This document shows, one piece after another, positions 1,504 through 10,313 of a DNA stretch of 64,000 nt. Where the stretch lies: the NCBI GenBank assembly GCA_944358865.1, contig CALVRV010000002.1, positions 12,433 through 76,432 on the forward strand, given 5' to 3'. Below the pieces are notes generated by a model. It did no database searches. It had not been told where the DNA came from and saw only the letters and a program-made list of their open reading frames with translations. Made by a program: the position numbers and the translations under genes. The DNA comes from an uncultured Bacilli bacterium (GTDB lineage Bacteria; Bacillota_I; Bacilli_A; RFN20; CAG-826). Numbering within the stretch: position 1 is the first letter of the stretch; each line of letters starts with the position of its first letter.

Positions 1504-1622
1504 TTGATACGTTATTTTAATTCTTTAATAACATTATCAATTTATATATTTACAATATATATATTATTCGATATAATGATATCGATAAAAAAGTATCGAA
1601 TATCTTGATACTAAAGTTATCA
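1504..1622. promoter_or_regulatory. Cluster of TATC(A/G)A half-sites forming several dyads (candidate operator array)
   Basis: TTGATAC 1504-1510 pairs with TTATCAA 1534-1540. TCGATAT-AATG-ATATCGA at 1568-1585 overlaps the -10 box. GTATC-N9-GATAC lies at 1593-1611 and TGATA-N7-TATCA at 1606-1622. Confidence 0.35.
1549..1577 (+). promoter_or_regulatory. Candidate sigma-A promoter of the rex-adhE-hydrogenase array
   Basis: -35 TTTACA (1549-1554), 17-nt spacer, consensus -10 TATAAT (1572-1577). RBS AAGGAGG at 1631-1637 precedes the rex ATG at 1643. Confidence 0.45.
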
Positions 1623-1642: not shown

Positions 1643-2296
1643 ATGGCTAAAAACGATGTCGTTTCTTATTCATTATCTACAATTCAAAGATTACCATCTT
1701 ATTTAAGAGCTTTAAATGATTTGGCAAGTCAAAATGAAGAATATGTAACGACAATAACTTTAGGCAAAATCTTAAATATTAATCCAATGTCAATTAAAAA
1801 AGACCTAGCTATTATATCTAGTAAAGAAGGTCTTCCACATTATGGATTTAAAATTTCTATTTTAATTAGCGACATTGAGACGATTTTAGGGTATGATAAT
1901 ACTAAGGATGCTGTTATTATTGGTGTCGGTCATTTAGGGCAAGCTTTACTGAGCTATCCAGGCTTTACCAATTATGGTGTAAATATTTGCCTAGGCTTTG
2001 ACATTGATAGCAATCTAATCGGCCAAACAATTCATGGTGTAACTATTATGCCTTTAACAAAATTAGAAGATTTGATCGAAAGGCTACATATTCACATTGC
2101 AATTATTTGTGTGCCAAAAGATGCCGCCCAAGAAATTGCTAATCGTTTGAGTAAAACAACGATACGGGCGATATGGAACTGGGCGCCGATTAACTTAGCA
2201 GTACCTGATAATATTGTTTTAAAAAACGAAGATATTGCCTCATCTTTAGCAATATTAACGAGCCAAATGGAGCAATCTATGAAAAGGAACAAGTGA
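1643..2296 (+). CDS. rex: Redox-sensing transcriptional repressor Rex
   Basis: N-terminal winged helix (TIQRLPSYLRAL) followed by a Rossmann NADH-binding motif (IIGVGHLGQAL). Length 217 aa is typical. It sits directly upstream of adhE. Confidence 0.9.
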   Translation: MAKNDVVSYSLSTIQRLPSYLRALNDLASQNEEYVTTITLGKILNINPMSIKKDLAIISSKEGLPHYGFKISILISDIETILGYDNTKDAVIIGVGHLGQALLSYPGFTNYGVNICLGFDIDSNLIGQTIHGVTIMPLTKLEDLIERLHIHIAIICVPKDAAQEIANRLSKTTIRAIWNWAPINLAVPDNIVLKNEDIASSLAILTSQMEQSMKRNK

Positions 2297-2300
2297 AATT

Positions 2301-4910
2301 ATGGAAGAAAGAAAAATTGTGGACAGCTTAGAAGCACTAGAAGCTGAAATTAAAAAAGTTAGAGAAGCACAAGCAAAATTTGCTACCTACACTCAAGAGC
2401 AAGTTGATGCAATTTTCTTAGCTAGTGCAAAAGCTGCTAATATGGCACGTATTCCTTTAGCCAAATTAGCAGTAGAAGAAACTGGAATGGGTGTCGTTGA
2501 AGACAAAGTAATTAAAAACCATTTCGCAAGCGAATATATTTATAACGCTTATCGTCATAGTCAAACTGTTGGTGTTTTTGAAGAAGACAAAGAATATGGT
2601 ATTAAAAAATTATATGAACCAATTGGTTTAGTAGGCGCTGTTATTCCTACTACTAATCCAACATCAACTGCCATTTTTAAAACTTTAATTTCTTTAAAAA
2701 CTAGAAATGGTATTATCATTTCACCACATCCAAGAGCAAAAAAATCAACTATTGCTGCTGCTAAAATTGTTTTAGATGCTGCAGTTAAAGCTGGTGCACC
2801 AGAAAATATTATTTCTTGGATTGATGTCCCATCTCTTGATATGACTACTTTATTGATGCATGAATCTGATATTATTCTTGCTACTGGTGGTCCTGGCATG
2901 GTTCATTCTGCTTATAGTAGTGGAAAACCAGCTTTAGGTGTCGGTGCTGGTAATACTCCTGCCATCATCGATAGTAGTGCTGACATTGTTTTAGCGGTCA
3001 ACTCAATTATTCATTCTAAAACATTTGATAATGGTATGATTTGTGCCAGTGAACAATCATGTATTGTTTTAGATGATGTTTATGATGCTGTTAAAGCTGA
3101 ATTTATCAAAAGAGGTTGTTATTTCTTGAATCCTGAAGAAACTGAAAAAGTTAGAAAAACAATCATCATTAATGGTGCGTTAAATGCTAAAATTGTTGGA
3201 CAAAAAGCTCATACAATTGCTAAATTAGCAGGCGTCGATGTTAAAGAAGATACTAAAGTTTTAATTGGCGAAGTCGAATCTGTTGATATAAGTGAAGAAT
3301 TTGCTCATGAAAAATTATCTCCAGTTCTTGCTATGTATCGCGCGAAAGACTTTACTGACGCAGTGGATAAAGCAAGCCATTTAATTGCTGATGGTGGTTA
3401 TGGTCATACATCTTCTTTATATATAAATGTTATTAAAGAACAAGAAAAAATTAATGTTTTCCAAGAAGCGATGAAAACTTGCCGTATTTTAATTAATACT
3501 CCTTCTAGCCAAGGTGGTATCGGTGATTTATATAACTTTAAATTATTACCATCATTGACTTTAGGTTGTGGATCCTGGGGAGGAAACTCGGTTAGTGAAA
3601 ACGTTGGAATTAAACATTTATTAAATATTAAAACCGTCGCTGAAAGGAGAAATAATATGTTGTGGTTTAGAGCCCCAAGCAAGGTTTATATTAAAAAAGG
3701 CTGTTTACCTGTTGCACTTCGTGAATTAAAAGAAGTTTATAATAAAAAAAGAGCCTTTATTGTTACAGACTCATTCTTATATAAAAATGGTTATACTAAA
3801 ACAATTGAAAAATGCTTATCAGAAATGGGCATTGAATATGCAACATTCTTTGATGTGGCACCAGATCCTACTTTACAATGTGCCCAAGAAGGTGTTAAAC
3901 AATTGAGTGCTTTCCAACCTGATGTCATTATATCTATCGGTGGTGGTAGCGCGATGGATGCTGGTAAAATCATGTGGGTTTTATATGAACATCCAGAATG
4001 TGATTTCCAAGATATGGCTATGCGTTTTAGCGATATTAGAAAAAGAGTATATCAATTCCCAAGAATGGGTGAAAAAGCATTCTTTATTGCTATTCCAACA
4101 AGTGCTGGTACTGGTAGTGAAGTTACTCCATTTGCTGTTATTACTGATGCGACAACTGGTACAAAATATCCTCTTGCCGACTATGAATTGATGCCTAATA
4201 TGGCAATTGTTGATACTGACTTAATGATGTCAGCGCCAAAAGGATTGACTTCTGCTAGTGGTATTGACGCAGTTAGCCATAACTTAGAAGCTTTAGTTTC
4301 AACAATGGCTACTGATTATACTGATGGCTTAGCTTTACAATCATTAAAAATGATTTTCGAATATTTACCACGTGCCTACAATGATGGACTTCATGATGTT
4401 GAAGCTCGTGAAAAAATGGCTAATGCTGCCACAATGGCTGGTATGGCATTTGCTAATGCTTTCTTAGGCGTTTGCCACTCTATGGCGCATAAATTGGGTG
4501 CATTCCATCATATTGCTCACGGTGTCGCTAATGCTTTAATGCTTGAAGAAGTTATCGCCTTTAACAGTGCTGATGTTCCTACTAAGATGGGTACATTCCC
4601 ACAATACGATCATCCATTTGCAAAACATAAATATGCTCTTGCCGCGGATGCCTTAGGTTTAAAAGGCAAAAATGATGACGAAAAAGTTGAAGCTTTAATC
4701 AAAGCAGTTCATGAATTAAAACATCAAATTGGTATTAAAGATACAATTAAAGAATATGGCATCGATGAAAAGAATTTCCTTGATCGTCTTGATGATATGG
4801 TCGAACAAGCTTTTGACGATCAATGTACAGGTGCCAACCCACGTTATCCTTTAATGAGTGAAATTAAACAAATGTATTTAAATGCCTATTATGGTAAGAA
4901 AGGAAAATAA
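2301..4910 (+). CDS. adhE: Bifunctional acetaldehyde-CoA/alcohol dehydrogenase AdhE
   Basis: 869 aa. N-terminal aldehyde dehydrogenase domain (catalytic MICASEQS). C-terminal iron-containing alcohol dehydrogenase domain (GGGSAMDAGK and a His-rich metal site, HSMAHKLGAFHHIAHG). Confidence 0.95.
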   Translation: MEERKIVDSLEALEAEIKKVREAQAKFATYTQEQVDAIFLASAKAANMARIPLAKLAVEETGMGVVEDKVIKNHFASEYIYNAYRHSQTVGVFEEDKEYGIKKLYEPIGLVGAVIPTTNPTSTAIFKTLISLKTRNGIIISPHPRAKKSTIAAAKIVLDAAVKAGAPENIISWIDVPSLDMTTLLMHESDIILATGGPGMVHSAYSSGKPALGVGAGNTPAIIDSSADIVLAVNSIIHSKTFDNGMICASEQSCIVLDDVYDAVKAEFIKRGCYFLNPEETEKVRKTIIINGALNAKIVGQKAHTIAKLAGVDVKEDTKVLIGEVESVDISEEFAHEKLSPVLAMYRAKDFTDAVDKASHLIADGGYGHTSSLYINVIKEQEKINVFQEAMKTCRILINTPSSQGGIGDLYNFKLLPSLTLGCGSWGGNSVSENVGIKHLLNIKTVAERRNNMLWFRAPSKVYIKKGCLPVALRELKEVYNKKRAFIVTDSFLYKNGYTKTIEKCLSEMGIEYATFFDVAPDPTLQCAQEGVKQLSAFQPDVIISIGGGSAMDAGKIMWVLYEHPECDFQDMAMRFSDIRKRVYQFPRMGEKAFFIAIPTSAGTGSEVTPFAVITDATTGTKYPLADYELMPNMAIVDTDLMMSAPKGLTSASGIDAVSHNLEALVSTMATDYTDGLALQSLKMIFEYLPRAYNDGLHDVEAREKMANAATMAGMAFANAFLGVCHSMAHKLGAFHHIAHGVANALMLEEVIAFNSADVPTKMGTFPQYDHPFAKHKYALAADALGLKGKNDDEKVEALIKAVHELKHQIGIKDTIKEYGIDEKNFLDRLDDMVEQAFDDQCTGANPRYPLMSEIKQMYLNAYYGKKGK

Positions 4911-4913
4911 AAA

Positions 4914-5669
4914 ATGGAACAAAAAAGAATTGTTGCTATCCGCACAGGAAAAACGATTTATCGTGAAAATGATAAATTATACAAAGTCTTTGAAGAAAAT
5001 TATAAAAAAAGCGACATTTTAAATGAAGCCTTAAACCATGCACGTGTCGAAGAAAGTGGTTTAGTTGTTCCAACTTTACACGAAGTGGGAAATATCGATG
5101 GCAAGTGGACTTTAGTGTATCAATATATTAAAGGTAAAACTTTAGAACAATTGATGGCTAAAAATCCAGATAAAATCGATGAATATTTAGAATTATTCGT
5201 TAATTTACAAATGGAAATTCATTCTAAATCTATTCCACATTTAAATAAAATCAAAGACAAAATTAAAGATCGTATTTCACAATGTGAACAATTAGACGCG
5301 ACGACAAGATATGAACTTCATACTCATCTTGCTTCTATGCCAAACCATGACCACGTTATTCATGGCGATTTCAATCCTTCTAATATTATTATTAGTGATG
5401 ATGATGGTAAAGTTTATGTTGTTGACTGGGCACACGCTAGTCAAGGTAATTCAAGTTATGATGCAGCGATGACATATTTATTGCTCCAATTAAGCGGTAA
5501 TTTGACACTTGCTGATAAATATTTAGATTTATATTGTAAGAAGACAAATACTTTAAAAAATTATGTCCAAAGTTGGATTCCAATTGTGGCTGCTGCTAAA
5601 CTTGTCACATGCCGCAAAGAAGAAGCTGAATTTTTAAAACATGCTTTAAATATTTATGATCATGAATAA
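4914..5669 (+). CDS. Aminoglycoside/choline-kinase-fold (APH family) phosphotransferase, substrate unknown
   Basis: HxDxxxxN catalytic loop (H150-GDFNPSN), metal-binding D in VVDW (D171) and a beta3-Lys candidate (LYKVF). The gene starts 3 nt after the adhE stop. Confidence 0.7.
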   Translation: MEQKRIVAIRTGKTIYRENDKLYKVFEENYKKSDILNEALNHARVEESGLVVPTLHEVGNIDGKWTLVYQYIKGKTLEQLMAKNPDKIDEYLELFVNLQMEIHSKSIPHLNKIKDKIKDRISQCEQLDATTRYELHTHLASMPNHDHVIHGDFNPSNIIISDDDGKVYVVDWAHASQGNSSYDAAMTYLLLQLSGNLTLADKYLDLYCKKTNTLKNYVQSWIPIVAAAKLVTCRKEEAEFLKHALNIYDHE

Positions 5670-5680
5670 GGAGTAGAAAT

Positions 5681-5929
5681 ATGGTTAAAGTTACAGTTTG
5701 TATTGGTAGTTCCTGCCATTTAAAAGGATCACGTCAAGTTGTTGAAGAATTACAATATCTTATTAAAGAAAACAATGTTGGTGATGAAGTTAATTTAGCT
5801 GGTGCATTTTGCATGGGCAAGTGCCAAGAAAAAGGCGTAAATGTTACTGTTGATGGCCAACATTATTCCATTTTACCAGAAGAAGTAAAACAATTTTTTA
5901 ACGATAAAATTTTAACAAAAATTAAATAA
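5681..5929 (+). CDS. Thioredoxin-like [2Fe-2S] ferredoxin (NuoE/HndA-like small protein)
   Basis: 82 aa with Cys pattern C7-x4-C12 ... C44-x3-C48 (CIGSSC ... CMGKC). It lies immediately upstream of the sensory hydrogenase gene. Confidence 0.7.
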   Translation: MVKVTVCIGSSCHLKGSRQVVEELQYLIKENNVGDEVNLAGAFCMGKCQEKGVNVTVDGQHYSILPEEVKQFFNDKILTKIK

Positions 5930-5959
5930 TTTTAATCTATTTATTAAAGTAGGGATAAG

Positions 5960-7675
5960 ATGATGATTAATTTTTTAGAATTTAAACCTGCCAAATGTAA
6001 AGACTGCTATAAATGTTTAAAACATTGTCCAGTCAACGCGATTGAGGTTATTAACCACCAAGCACAAATTATTTCTAGCCGATGTATTTTGTGTGGGAAT
6101 TGTACTCTTATTTGCCCGCAAAACGCTAAGAAAGTTCATAATTCAATTGATGAAGTGTTAGACCTTATTAAACAAAACGATAATGTTATTGCAAGTGTTG
6201 CACCAAGTTTTGTTTCTTCCTTTAACATCGATGATTTTGAAGTTATACGTGAAGCTTTAAAAACAATTGGCTTTAAAGATGCTTTTGAAACTGCAATCGG
6301 TGCTTATGCGGTATCAAGAGAATATGAAAAATTACTTGCTAGTGGTAAATTTAAAAATTTTATAACATCAGCTTGTCCCGCGATAAATAGAATGATTCAA
6401 CTTTATTATCATGATGCTTTAAAATATCTAGCGCCTGTTGTTTCTCCTATGGTCGCACATTATCGCATTATTAAAGCTAATAATCCTAATGCTAAAGTTG
6501 TATTTATTGGACCATGTATTGCTAAAAAAAGAGAAGCATATGAAAATAATTTAGATGGTTGCTTAACTTTTGAAGAAATCAATCAAATTTTTAAAAAAGA
6601 AAATATTGATTTAAGAAAAATTAATATTACTAATACTACTAAAGGTGTTGTTAATAGCGCTAAATATTATCCAATTAGTCGTGGCATAATTAAATCTTTT
6701 GATAATAATTTTGTAAAAGGCTATGAATATCTTGCTATGGATGGAAATCAAAAAGCAAGAGAAATACTTGATAATATCGATAAAGTTGATGGCATTTTTA
6801 TTGAACTTAATTCTTGTGATAATGCTTGTGTTAATGGACCTTGTTCATTACTAAGTAAAGGAACTAGTTTAAACGCTAATAGTGCAATTAGAAAATATGT
6901 TAGAAAAGATATTGTAAGCGGTGGAACTTCTAAATTAGAAATACCTGATAACATTGACTTTTCTTATCAATTTAAACCATTAGACGCTCATGATAGAGAA
7001 CCAAGCGAAGAAGAAATAAAAGATATTTTAGCTAGAACTGGTAAATATAGTAAAGAAGATGAATTAAATTGCGGTGCTTGTGGCTATGATACATGTAGAA
7101 AAAAAGCTTGGGCTGTTATAAATGGATATGCTGATATTGAAATGTGTGTTCCATATATGAGAAAAAAAGCTGAATCCATGTCTTATGAAATCATACAAAA
7201 TATGCCAAATGGTATTATTGTTTGTGATGACAATTATCATATAAAAGAAATAAATTCCATGGCATGCAAATTATTTTTAGTCTCACCAAATGAAGCTAAA
7301 AATATGTTTGTCTATGAACTAATGGATAGCAGTGCTTTTGAAGGAGCCTTAGAAAAAAAGAAAAATACCTATCATCAAAAAATAGATATTTTAAAAACTC
7401 ATTCTGTTGTGGATATGAGTGTTATTGCACTTAGAGAAGAGCATTCTGCTTTTGCTGTTTTAAAAGATATAACCGAAAAGCAAAAAGTCAAAAATGAATT
7501 TAATAAATTAAGAGCTAATACGATAAACACTACTGATGAAGTAATTAAAAAACAAATGCGTGTTGCGCAAGAAATAGCTTCTGTTTTAGGTGAAACTGTA
7601 GCAGAAACAAAAGTAGCAATATTAAATCTTAAAAAATCTTTAGAAAATGAAAATAAAATAGATGAGGATGAATAA
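5960..7675 (+). CDS. hydS: Sensory-type [FeFe] hydrogenase homologue with C-terminal PAS domain (HydS / group C-like)
   Basis: Two N-terminal CxxCxxCxxxCP ferredoxin motifs. Variant H-cluster motifs TSACP (136-140), GPCIAKKRE and ELNSCDNACVNGPC. Extra Cx2Cx4Cx16C motif (C371, C374, C379, C396), then a PAS-like region (about aa 405-520). Confidence 0.8.
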   Translation: MMINFLEFKPAKCKDCYKCLKHCPVNAIEVINHQAQIISSRCILCGNCTLICPQNAKKVHNSIDEVLDLIKQNDNVIASVAPSFVSSFNIDDFEVIREALKTIGFKDAFETAIGAYAVSREYEKLLASGKFKNFITSACPAINRMIQLYYHDALKYLAPVVSPMVAHYRIIKANNPNAKVVFIGPCIAKKREAYENNLDGCLTFEEINQIFKKENIDLRKINITNTTKGVVNSAKYYPISRGIIKSFDNNFVKGYEYLAMDGNQKAREILDNIDKVDGIFIELNSCDNACVNGPCSLLSKGTSLNANSAIRKYVRKDIVSGGTSKLEIPDNIDFSYQFKPLDAHDREPSEEEIKDILARTGKYSKEDELNCGACGYDTCRKKAWAVINGYADIEMCVPYMRKKAESMSYEIIQNMPNGIIVCDDNYHIKEINSMACKLFLVSPNEAKNMFVYELMDSSAFEGALEKKKNTYHQKIDILKTHSVVDMSVIALREEHSAFAVLKDITEKQKVKNEFNKLRANTINTTDEVIKKQMRVAQEIASVLGETVAETKVAILNLKKSLENENKIDEDE

Positions 7676-8840
7676 TAATATGTCATTATTTATTGATTTT
7701 GGATATACATCTTTAAATCATTTTGGTGAAGAACTTTGTGGTGACAAAGTTGAATATGCTAAAAATAATGATTATGTTACTTTAGTTTTAGCAGATGGTT
7801 TAGGAAGCGGAGTTAAGGCTAATATTTTAAGTACCTTAACTAGTAAAATTTTATGTACCATGGTATCTAATAACGTTTCAATAAATGAATGTTTAGAAAC
7901 AATGGTCGCGTCCTTACCTGTTTGTAAAGAACGTGGAGTTGCTTATTCAACTTTTACAGTTGTTCATATCAATCACGAAGGTAAAGGATTCCTATTTGAA
8001 TTTGATAATCCACAGGCTATTTATATTCATGATGGCAAATGTTTAGACTTAGAAAGAAAAAAGATTACTGTATCAGGAAAAGATGTCTATCAAAGTGATT
8101 TAAATTTAAAAGATAATGACTTTATTGTTACTATGAGTGATGGGGCAATTCATGCCGGTATTGGTGCGACATTAAATTTTGGATGGGAAAGAGAAGACAT
8201 TAAAAAATATTTAGAATCAGTCTATGATAAAAATATGTCCGCGAAAGCTATCGCGTGTAGTCTTGCTAAATCTTGCAACGATCTATATCTTGATAAGCCA
8301 GGTGATGATACCACCATCGCGGCAATTAAAATAAGAAAATCTTTACGTGTCCATATTATGGTTGGGCCACCAGTTGATAAAAGCAAAGATGAATATTATA
8401 TTTCTAGATTTTTAAAAGATGCAGATAAGACTATTGTGTGTGGAGGAACTTCTTCAACCATAGTAGCTCGTTATCTAAATAAACCTATTGAAGTCGATTT
8501 AACTTATTTAGATAGCGATGTGCCTCCAATGGGTAAAATTGAAGGTATTGATTTAGTTACTGAAGGAGTTTTAACCTTACGTAAATTGCTAGAACTAAGT
8601 GAAGAATATTTATCTATTGTTGATTTATCGCCTAAAATTTTTATTAAAAAAGATGGTGCGACTCGTCTAGCTGATATGCTATTTATTGAGGCAAGTGATG
8701 TTGATTTTTATGTCGGACAATCAATAAACGCAGCGCATCAAGGATTACCTATTGATATTACTATGAAACTTAAATTAGTAGAATCTTTAGCAAATAATTT
8801 AAAAAAAATGGGCAAAAATGTTACATTAAATTATGATTAA
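7662..8840 (+). CDS. PP2C/SpoIIE-family protein Ser/Thr phosphatase with uncharacterised C-terminal domain
   Basis: N-terminal half has SpoIIE-like motifs (CGDKVEY, LADGLGSGVKANILS, MSDGAIHAG, GDDTTIAAIK). The start may instead be the ATG at 7680, with GAGGA 11 nt upstream. The ORF overlaps the hydS stop. Confidence 0.8.
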   Translation: MRMNNNMSLFIDFGYTSLNHFGEELCGDKVEYAKNNDYVTLVLADGLGSGVKANILSTLTSKILCTMVSNNVSINECLETMVASLPVCKERGVAYSTFTVVHINHEGKGFLFEFDNPQAIYIHDGKCLDLERKKITVSGKDVYQSDLNLKDNDFIVTMSDGAIHAGIGATLNFGWEREDIKKYLESVYDKNMSAKAIACSLAKSCNDLYLDKPGDDTTIAAIKIRKSLRVHIMVGPPVDKSKDEYYISRFLKDADKTIVCGGTSSTIVARYLNKPIEVDLTYLDSDVPPMGKIEGIDLVTEGVLTLRKLLELSEEYLSIVDLSPKIFIKKDGATRLADMLFIEASDVDFYVGQSINAAHQGLPIDITMKLKLVESLANNLKKMGKNVTLNYD

Positions 8841-8867
8841 TATAAAATATTAAGTGAGGGAGAGTAA

Positions 8868-10313
8868 ATGAAAACTAAAAATTTTGATACCAAAGTACAA
8901 GACTTAAAATATCGTGTTTTAAAAGAAGTTGCAAAATATGCATGGGAAGGAACTTTAATTGATCATGTTTTAGATATTCCTAATATTATTGTTCCTGGTA
9001 AAAAACCTACCATGCGTTGCTGTGTTTATAAAGAAAAAGCTATCGCGGCTGAACGGGTAAAATTAGCGATGGGTGGTAATCCTAATAATCCTAATATTAT
9101 TGAAGTTATCGATATTGCATGTGATGATTGCCCAACTGGTGGTTTTCATGTCACTGATGCTTGTCGAGGCTGTTTAGCACATCGTTGTGAAGAAGCATGT
9201 CGACTTAACGCCATATATTTTGATGAAAATCGTCGCGCGCACATTGATAAGAGTAAATGTGTTGAATGTGGTCAATGCGCTAAATCGTGTTTTTATAACG
9301 CGATTATATCTTTTAAAAGACCATGCGAGGCATCTTGTAAAATTAACGCTATTAGCATGAGCGAAGATAAAACTGCTCGAATTAATAATGATGATTGTAT
9401 TGCATGTGGTGCTTGCTCATATCAATGTCCTTTTGGTGCTATTATGGACAAATCATTTATTATTAATGTTATTGATTTTATTAAAAAAAGTGAAAACAAC
9501 ACTAAATACAAAGTTTACGCTATTGTTGCGCCATCAATCGCGGGTCAATTTAGATATGCTAAATTAGGTCAAGTTGTCGCAGGTCTTAAAAAAATTGGAT
9601 TTTTTAGTGTTGTAGAAGTTGCTTTAGGTGCTGATATGGTTGCTTATCTAGAGAGCCAAGAATTAGCAAAAAAAGGCTTTTTAACTAGCTCTTGTTGTCC
9701 AGCATTTGTAAGTTATGTCGAAAAGAAATTTCCAAATTTAAAACAATATGTTTCTCATAATTTATCCCCAATGGGAACAATTGCTAAATATATAAAAGAG
9801 ACAGATCCAACTTCTAAGATTGTCTTTATTGGACCTTGCACGGCTAAAAAAGCTGAAATTAAACGTGATGAAGTCAAAGGATTAGTTGATGTAGTCATGA
9901 CTTTTGAAGAACTACAAGCTTTAATTGATTCTAAAGATATTGATTTAACAACTTTAGAAGATGATGTTTTAGATAATGCTTCATATTATGGTCGTATTTT
10001 TGCTCGTAGCGGTGGTGTTAGTGACGCAGTTAAACAAGCAATAAAAGAACAAAATATCGAATTTGAAGTTAAGCCTGAAGTATGTAATGGAATTGAGGCT
10101 TGCCGTCTAGCGCTTATTAAGAAAAATAATAATAAACTTGACGCTAATTTCATTGAAGGCATGGCTTGTGTTGGAGGCTGTATTGGTGGAGCAGGTAATG
10201 TTACCCACAGCATAATTAATGCAAGCGAAGTTGATAAATATGGTAGACAAGCTCTAGAAAAAAATATTACTACTGCTGTAAGTGTTTATGATTTAAACGT
10301 CAAATCAAAATAA
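8868..10313 (+). CDS. hydA: Catalytic-type monomeric [FeFe] hydrogenase
   Basis: Canonical H-cluster motifs TSSCCPAFV, GPCTAKKAE and EGMACVGGCIGGAG. Two 4Fe-4S ferredoxin motifs (CVECGQCAKSC, CIACGACSYQCP) and additional N-terminal Cys. Confidence 0.85.
   Translation: MKTKNFDTKVQDLKYRVLKEVAKYAWEGTLIDHVLDIPNIIVPGKKPTMRCCVYKEKAIAAERVKLAMGGNPNNPNIIEVIDIACDDCPTGGFHVTDACRGCLAHRCEEACRLNAIYFDENRRAHIDKSKCVECGQCAKSCFYNAIISFKRPCEASCKINAISMSEDKTARINNDDCIACGACSYQCPFGAIMDKSFIINVIDFIKKSENNTKYKVYAIVAPSIAGQFRYAKLGQVVAGLKKIGFFSVVEVALGADMVAYLESQELAKKGFLTSSCCPAFVSYVEKKFPNLKQYVSHNLSPMGTIAKYIKETDPTSKIVFIGPCTAKKAEIKRDEVKGLVDVVMTFEELQALIDSKDIDLTTLEDDVLDNASYYGRIFARSGGVSDAVKQAIKEQNIEFEVKPEVCNGIEACRLALIKKNNNKLDANFIEGMACVGGCIGGAGNVTHSIINASEVDKYGRQALEKNITTAVSVYDLNVKSK

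Follow-up and report, generated by a model that had tools for sequence, protein, structure and literature searches.

An APH-fold kinase gene linked to adhE in the HydS-type hydrogenase cluster of an uncultured Bacilli bacterium

What does a stand-alone kinase do between the gene of a bifunctional AdhE and those of a hydrogenase-based sensory module? The question arises from a 64,000-nucleotide stretch of DNA (contig CALVRV010000002.1, positions 12,433 to 76,432; hereafter the window) of an uncultured Bacilli bacterium of the CAG-826 lineage, in which an open reading frame (ORF) with an ATG start encodes a kinase of 251 amino acids (aa) with the APH/ELK fold (4914..5669; all features of the window described here lie on the + strand). 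The gene begins 3 nucleotides (nt) after the stop of adhE (4910) and ends 11 nt before the start (5681) of the first of three genes that encode a ferredoxin, a HydS-type [FeFe] hydrogenase and a SpoIIE/PP2C phosphatase. Judged by sequence and gene order, it is the orthologue of a gene already noted, and uncharacterised, in the corresponding clusters of Ruminococcus albus and Clostridium thermocellum. The primary evolutionary partner of the kinase is adhE and not the HydS-PP2C module.

Fold, active site and nearest known enzymes

The ORF and its translation bear out the original prediction of a 251-aa phosphotransferase with the signature H150-G-D-F-N-P-S-N and D171, and its placement between adhE and the ferredoxin/HydS/PP2C genes at the distances given above. 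The loop and the tail that follows it read VIH150GDFNPSN157IIISDDDGKVYVVD171W, of which the catalytic loop H150-G-D152-F-N-P-S-N157 (an HxDxxxxN motif) is encoded at 5361..5384 and D171-W172, with the presumed Mg-binding Asp equivalent to the Asp of DFG, at 5424..5429; by comparison with the kinase fold, K24 (codon 4983..4985) is the presumed ATP-binding Lys of strand beta3 and E38 (codon 5025-5027) would belong to helix alphaC. The proposed APH/choline-kinase fold was likewise recovered: the Pfam model APH (PF01636) is passed with 53.3 bits against a cut-off of 23.2 over residues 24-208, and an AlphaFold2 model built on 18 orthologues, with a mean predicted local distance difference test score (pLDDT) of 87.6, is bilobal and APH(3')-like, its best Foldseek match being APH(3')-Ia (4fev_A, E 2.9e-10, TM 0.70). 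The Hanks-type model PF00069 is not reached (21.4 bits against 31.7, with no single stretch passing), and the kinase has no Pfam match to HATPase_c of the RsbW/SpoIIAB-type GHKL proteins, its fold being APH-like instead. K24, E38, H150, D152, N157 and D171 are invariant in 105/105 close orthologues, and for this reason the window kinase looks catalytically competent; among representatives of the whole family, K24 is K in 107/111, E38 is E in 103/111 and D171 is D in 104/111.

The close structural neighbours are small-molecule kinases throughout, and a small-molecule substrate is for that reason a serious rival to a protein substrate. The enzyme would then phosphorylate a metabolite or cofactor precursor of the AdhE/hydrogenase branch, on a hydroxyl of an alcohol, amine, sugar or nucleotide. 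Small-molecule kinases account for all of the 50 best Foldseek matches of the model (TM 0.56-0.73), and the best matches in the Protein Data Bank (PDB) are APH(3')-Ia/IIa, APH(4), capreomycin phosphotransferase and the choline kinase LicA, at 12-19% identity. The resemblance to APH(3')-Ia/IIa (PDB 4fev, 1nd4) extends to E 3e-10, TM 0.68-0.70, overall size, the HGDxxxxN loop and the Mg-binding Asp, but identity lies within the range just given and the surroundings of the gene in the window belong to regulation and metabolism rather than to resistance. In sequence-profile comparisons LicA (E 1e-5) and Bud32 (E 3.5e-5) are the closest proteins of known structure, each over the catalytic-loop region only; LicA (PDB 4r77) shares the segment IDW-x-x-x...D-x-A after the catalytic loop, but only about 65 residues align. 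Close orthologues also share an acidic C-terminal D-[YH]-E tail, which would suit a small-molecule substrate; in APH(3') enzymes the C-terminus helps to bind the substrate.

The search for a characterised counterpart, looked for as a refutation of the original prediction, gave none. The kinase stays under the cut-offs of the models for APH(3') resistance enzymes (NF033068, 29.1 bits against 205), choline/ethanolamine kinase (PF01633, 23.0 against 29), thiamine kinase ThiK (TIGR02721, 28.5 against 299.45) and homoserine kinase II (TIGR00938, 18.1 against 255.9) and far under those for macrolide phosphotransferases in the NCBIfam/Pfam profile search, and the best 25 of its 26 NCBIfam matches include no methylthioribose-kinase or FN3K model; by these profiles, no characterised small-molecule kinase is its orthologue. 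Nor does any metabolic or transport gene that could serve a phosphorylated small molecule or its uptake recur beside the kinase among the loci examined. The gene is embedded among regulators (Rex, the PAS-bearing HydS and PP2C), and members of the family that have lost the catalytic Asp, described below, keep their genomic context. A small-molecule role is on balance unlikely.

A nucleotide-dependent switch or ATPase that binds ATP together with AdhE, Rex or HydS and acts by conformation, as Bud32 and RIO do, would account for other matches of the same protein. Bud32 is the second-best NCBIfam match (TIGR03724, 43.1 against 125 bits, E 3e-11) and a Bud32 chain the second-best solved relative, RIO1 (PF01163) scores 24.2 against 22 bits while covering residues 128-175 only, and these proteins resemble the window kinase in their length of about 250 aa, the lack of an activation loop and profile matches that are weak but significant in the catalytic region; family members without the catalytic Asp, moreover, retain nucleotide-binding residues. 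Both matches are confined to the catalytic-loop region and lie under equivalog cut-offs, however, the Bud32 score is far from its threshold (43 vs 125 bits), the window kinase has no KEOPS or ribosome-biogenesis context, and the six catalytic residues invariant throughout its clade argue for phosphotransfer. The switch is given a low probability, well under that of a small-molecule kinase.

Linkage to adhE and to the HydS-PP2C module

Kinase loci were retrieved with an alignment as the query, a single-protein query having returned none. The family comprises more than 8,000 clusters at 90% identity, and the 235 clusters at 50% identity that match at E <= 1e-30 are all stand-alone proteins of about 250 aa; no Rosetta-stone fusion occurs among the best 150 representatives, all of about 245-260 aa, and relatives are present in 598 or more species genomes. 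Across the 80 best loci, counting those with enough sequence, AdhE is encoded immediately upstream of the kinase in 67/68, HydS downstream in 61/69, PP2C downstream in 52/60 and Rex upstream in 26/59. A small ferredoxin gene follows the kinase in most loci, remote ones included, and the order rex-adhE-X-fdx-hydS-PP2C is shared by 60 or more further loci.

The relation of the kinase to its two partners was compared in 300 evenly sampled Clostridia species genomes and in 23 near-complete kinase-bearing Bacilli genomes (estimated completeness 94% or more). Each class sample contains one unscored genome, and most sampled genomes are metagenome-assembled genomes (MAGs), in which absences are softer than presences. 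In the Clostridia, the kinase is found in 79 genomes (about a quarter), AdhE of the same clade in 95 and PP2C of the cluster type in 104. Kinase and AdhE occur together in 70 genomes, the kinase only in 9, AdhE only in 25 and neither in 196 (odds ratio 61, p 1e-36), with AdhE no more than 400 nt from the kinase in 66/79 kinase genomes; kinase and PP2C occur together in 46, the kinase only in 33, PP2C only in 58 and neither in 163 (odds ratio 3.9, p 5e-7), with the two genes being neighbours in 36 of the 46 genomes that have both. Co-occurrence with HydS/PP2C beyond the genome of the window, which had been suggested as a check, is present, though loose for PP2C. In all 33 PP2C-less kinase genomes AdhE is adjacent to the kinase, in all nine AdhE-less kinase genomes PP2C is present, and no kinase genome lacks both partners. 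Both partners are present in 11 of the 23 Bacilli genomes, while seven have AdhE and lack HydS and the cognate PP2C genome-wide and five carry Rex-kinase-Fdx-HydS-PP2C without a bifunctional AdhE. On a maximum-likelihood tree of 110 kinases, the presence of HydS changes at least 11 times and adjacency to AdhE twice.

The same genomes bear on the suggestion that the operon has accidentally captured a phosphotransferase for antibiotics or xenobiotics that is unrelated to its other genes. Its public annotation is 'aminoglycoside phosphotransferase', and plasmid relatives at 23-30% identity stand in variable contexts, both of which would suit a trapped gene; but the position is conserved among relatives in hundreds of species genomes, the APH resistance models are far out of reach, and in the 79 Clostridia and 23 Bacilli genomes no kinase gene stands apart from both adhE and the HydS-PP2C module. 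Its conservation within the module, in one orientation with the other genes and across many genomes, shows that the kinase is not a trapped passenger; a trapped resistance gene was rejected on synteny and retains next to no probability. Beyond these two classes, kinase and adhE also occur in a Treponema sp. MAG (L055, labelled Spirochaetota), a Coriobacteriaceae-labelled bin (L061) and Collinsella aerofaciens (L082, Actinomycetota). The full module is present in two of these three records, L061 being nearly identical to the Eubacteriales locus L057, and Collinsella has the adhE-kinase pair and nothing else of the module. The records labelled Spirochaetota and Actinomycetota point to transfer across phyla or, where they are MAGs, to mis-binning.

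Does the kinase, then, belong to the PP2C? The original prediction saw in it a candidate for the kinase that opposes the PP2C, on a protein or small-molecule substrate, and the strict form of that idea makes it a dedicated Ser/Thr kinase that shares one substrate with the HydS-linked PP2C, the two being an obligate pair that delivers the output of a hydrogen sensor. The adjacency of the two genes in most Clostridia genomes that have both, the association between them, the presence of HydS downstream in 61 of the 69 closest loci and a proposal for R. albus by Zheng et al. 2014, as quoted in PMC5707799, speak for such a pair, and opposition is possible where both proteins are present and fits the genomes in which they are adjacent. 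It cannot be the defining function of the family, because each gene is often found alone and the kinase is more faithful to adhE: 33/79 kinase genomes lack PP2C and 58/104 PP2C genomes lack the kinase in the Clostridia, and 7/23 of the Bacilli kinase genomes are without HydS or cognate PP2C. HydS, as noted, comes and goes on the kinase tree, one member whose loop reads HGE, without the catalytic Asp, sits in a Rex-X-fdx-fdx-HydS-PP2C locus, and hfsABCD of Thermoanaerobacterium saccharolyticum works without such a kinase gene (PMC11837493). An obligate pair is improbable.

Loci that lack the kinase are informative about what had been called the kinase slot of the HydS-PP2C module. The 30 ORFs that were Pfam-scanned around the Fdx-HydS-PP2C core of ten loci without the kinase comprise transposon-associated TnpB-like proteins, PFL, NuoF-like subunits and transporters, among others, and no kinase of any type; a kinase slot therefore does not exist. 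In 10/58 of the kinase-less PP2C genomes, including L113 (G324:C1) and L114 (G453:C13), the layout is (hydrogenase)-Fdx-HydS-PP2C followed directly by an AdhE of another clade, about 49% identical to the AdhE of the window, so that the HydS-PP2C module is linked to adhE in two independent layouts. Two further features of these surroundings were observed. Cas12f1-like TNB (TnpB-like) ORFs (L114:4971-6575, L115:7273-8475, L116:9771-11339) adjoin the HydS-PP2C core or its neighbouring adhE in three unrelated genomes, and in one Clostridia genome (L120:12501-14201) a tandem run of six ORFs, each of 91 aa, is found a few genes away from the core.

The same gene occupies the same place in the clusters of two model organisms. 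In tblastn searches of plasmid records, plasmid pRUMAL01 of R. albus 7 (NC_014824.1) matched the window kinase at 53% identity over its full length, the counterpart being RUMAL_RS17360 (WP_013483408.1), annotated 'phosphotransferase'; the genes annotated there are, in order, Rex, AdhE, 'phosphotransferase', two 2Fe-2S ferredoxins, HydS-type hydrogenase, SpoIIE phosphatase and HydA2. The two clusters are alike in the size of the kinase and in its position between adhE and the ferredoxin/HydS/PP2C genes, but R. albus has two ferredoxin genes, on a megaplasmid, where the window has one. Because RUMAL_RS17360 is the sole kinase-like gene of that cluster, it is presumably the 'adjacent Ser/Thr protein kinase' to which Zheng et al. 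2014 proposed that HydS signals, as quoted in PMC5707799. In C. thermocellum, Rex (Cthe_0422), AdhE (Cthe_0423), an 'aminoglycoside phosphotransferase' (Cthe_0424), a small hypothetical protein in the place of the ferredoxin (Cthe_0425), Fe-S/HydS (Cthe_0426), SpoIIE (Cthe_0427) and the hydrogenase (Cthe_0428-0430) follow one another (PMC3848806). Cthe_0424 is likened to the window kinase by gene order and annotation and not by its own sequence; an Acetivibrio mesophilus orthologue has the same gene order and 58% identity to the window kinase, which on the tree falls within the group of R. albus/C. thermocellum cluster kinases. The hydrogenase downstream differs, being an NADH-linked HydABC in Acetivibrio/C. 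thermocellum (L071) and a group B monomer in the window. Thus the expectation that HydS clusters usually carry RsbW-like or Hanks-type kinases does not hold in R. albus 7 and C. thermocellum, which have this APH-fold family instead, and the kinase of the window is not unusual for a HydS cluster. The literature shows co-regulation of the cluster in both organisms: that of R. albus responds to hydrogen, being 111-fold down in co-culture with a hydrogen consumer (PMC6776011), and Cthe_0422-0431 respond jointly to stress (PMC3848806).

Farther from the window kinase, members at 33-35% identity keep redox contexts, among them Rex-kinase, the kinase followed directly by an [FeFe] hydrogenase, Fe-ADH ... 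Rex-kinase-Fdx-x-HydABC and kinase-Fdx. At 33-44% identity, N, E, S, H, G, C or K stands in the place of D152 (giving HGN, HGE, HGH, HGS and others) in 23/110 representatives (21%), namely P0133, P0144, P0174, P0229, P0245 and 18 others, which largely keep K24, E38, N157 and D171 and are probable pseudokinases. Genomic context was looked up for six of them: one is in the complete Rex-X-Fdx-Fdx-HydS-PP2C array mentioned above, two follow Rex (one in a Rex-X-Fdx-x-HydABC array, one on a short contig), two precede ferredoxin genes without Rex and one stands alone; adhE is upstream of none of the six. Repeated loss of the catalytic Asp with the context kept is a pattern typical of signalling pseudokinases and not of metabolic enzymes, and in this part of the family the member beside HydS-PP2C therefore probably phosphorylates nothing.

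A candidate role in the ethanol/hydrogen branch

The role favoured here, at somewhat less than an even chance, is that of a kinase that regulates the module for electron disposal to ethanol and hydrogen through one of the module's own proteins, PP2C being an antagonist that it can do without. Its gene would be part of a single transcribed array together with rex, adhE and the hfs-like genes, and the kinase would use ATP to modify a protein of the ethanol/hydrogen branch. AdhE is the leading candidate substrate because of its near-obligate adjacency to the kinase, ahead of Rex, the hydrogenase and the small ferredoxin; where HydS-PP2C is present, it would reverse the mark in a hydrogen-dependent way. 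A more specific version, in which the kinase is co-inherited with adhE, phosphorylates AdhE (or Rex) and thereby sets the split between ethanol and hydrogen, with HydS-PP2C as an optional eraser and the pseudokinase branches acting by binding only, is doubtful as a whole.

Such a role has possible analogues elsewhere. AceK and PpsR/PDRP are dedicated kinases of metabolic enzymes encoded beside their pathway, and by analogy the window kinase may be another stand-alone kinase co-inherited with the enzyme or pathway that it regulates. YihE/SrkA is a protein kinase of the APH fold, and the fold itself does not exclude protein substrates.

Several points weigh against a regulatory kinase that acts on AdhE. 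The closest structural neighbours, as described above, are small-molecule kinases without exception. A comparison of 41 kinase-linked with 19 kinase-less AdhEs revealed no Ser, Thr or Tyr specific to the linked set, and therefore points to no acceptor site as yet; a handful of positions differ between linked and unlinked enzymes, such as D770-H771 versus K-Y and A710 versus S. A literature search on the phosphoproteome and AdhE returned nothing relevant. Adjacency of genes is not proof of a physical or regulatory interaction. Finally, 9/79 kinase genomes in the Clostridia and 5/23 in the Bacilli lack AdhE, so that AdhE cannot be the only target.

The module in the window and its meaning

The module of the window comprises, besides the kinase, a Rex redox-sensing repressor (1643..2296; NCBIfam NF003994, 235 bits against a cut-off of 130), the bifunctional AdhE (2301..4910; NF010378, 1371 bits), an HfsA-like, thioredoxin-like 2Fe-2S ferredoxin of 82 aa (5681..5929; PF01257), the HydS/HfsB-type [FeFe] hydrogenase with a C-terminal FeS motif and a PAS domain (5960..7675; PF02906, PF04060, PAS), the HfsC-like SpoIIE/PP2C phosphatase (7662..8840; PF07228) and a monomeric group B1 [FeFe] hydrogenase resembling HfsD/HydA2 (8868..10313; TIGR04105, 578.6 bits against 450), which is 65% identical to the hydrogenase of the R. 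albus cluster; in the profile search, holA is listed after it. Shine-Dalgarno sequences stand at both junctions of the kinase gene, on the adhE side and on the ferredoxin side, and no terminator-like site was found between the genes of the array from rex to the hydrogenase. The only sizeable intergenic gap, upstream of rex, holds the best sigma-70-like promoter match (1549..1577, 11/12), which is a consensus match only and not above chance over the whole region.

The PP2C carries a C-terminal domain of 167 aa (8337-8837) that has no Pfam match and is strongly conserved, with the motifs CGGT[ST]S, DL[VT]TEG, DGAS and N-x-AHQ..LPI. Its AlphaFold2 model (pLDDT 84) is a Rossmann-like alpha/beta fold whose best Foldseek match in the PDB is not significant (E 5e-3, TM below 0.4); a built-in GHKL kinase or STAS partner was rejected in favour of this Rossmann-like fold. 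The only true Hanks-type kinase of the genome is elsewhere (C4:57417-58301), a PrkC-like protein of 294 aa without PASTA repeats, and its gene overlaps an upstream gene for an ordinary PP2C of 253 aa, the pair (C4:57417-59052) lying next to rpe-like and rlmN-like genes.

The host assembly, of 1.19 Mb and 97.7% completeness, has one copy of the kinase. Its G+C content is 28.0%, against 32.2% for the rex-adhE-kinase-hfs module (1643-10313); within the family of the host the kinase is limited to the host's own genus, and on the maximum-likelihood tree it branches with L001 and a genome of the same genus inside a Clostridia clade. The difference in G+C, the restriction to one genus and the nesting among Clostridia sequences make it probable that the whole module arrived by horizontal transfer.

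For the window alone the significance is modest, its kinase being, by sequence and gene order, the orthologue of a noted and uncharacterised gene on this probably horizontally acquired module. For the family it is wider. HydS-type clusters control the split between ethanol, hydrogen and acetate in Clostridia of the rumen and gut and in strains used for biofuel, and apart from this kinase no kinase-like gene recurs in such clusters. What is added here is adhE as its primary evolutionary partner and the existence of probable pseudokinase branches in the family. Because the kinase tracks adhE more tightly than HydS-PP2C, AdhE and Rex become the targets to consider, also in organisms without HydS. 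Were the more specific version true, in which the kinase phosphorylates AdhE (or Rex), it would supply the missing output step of hydrogen sensing based on [FeFe] hydrogenases, and would be the first kinase of the APH fold for which control of a central enzyme of fermentation had been shown.

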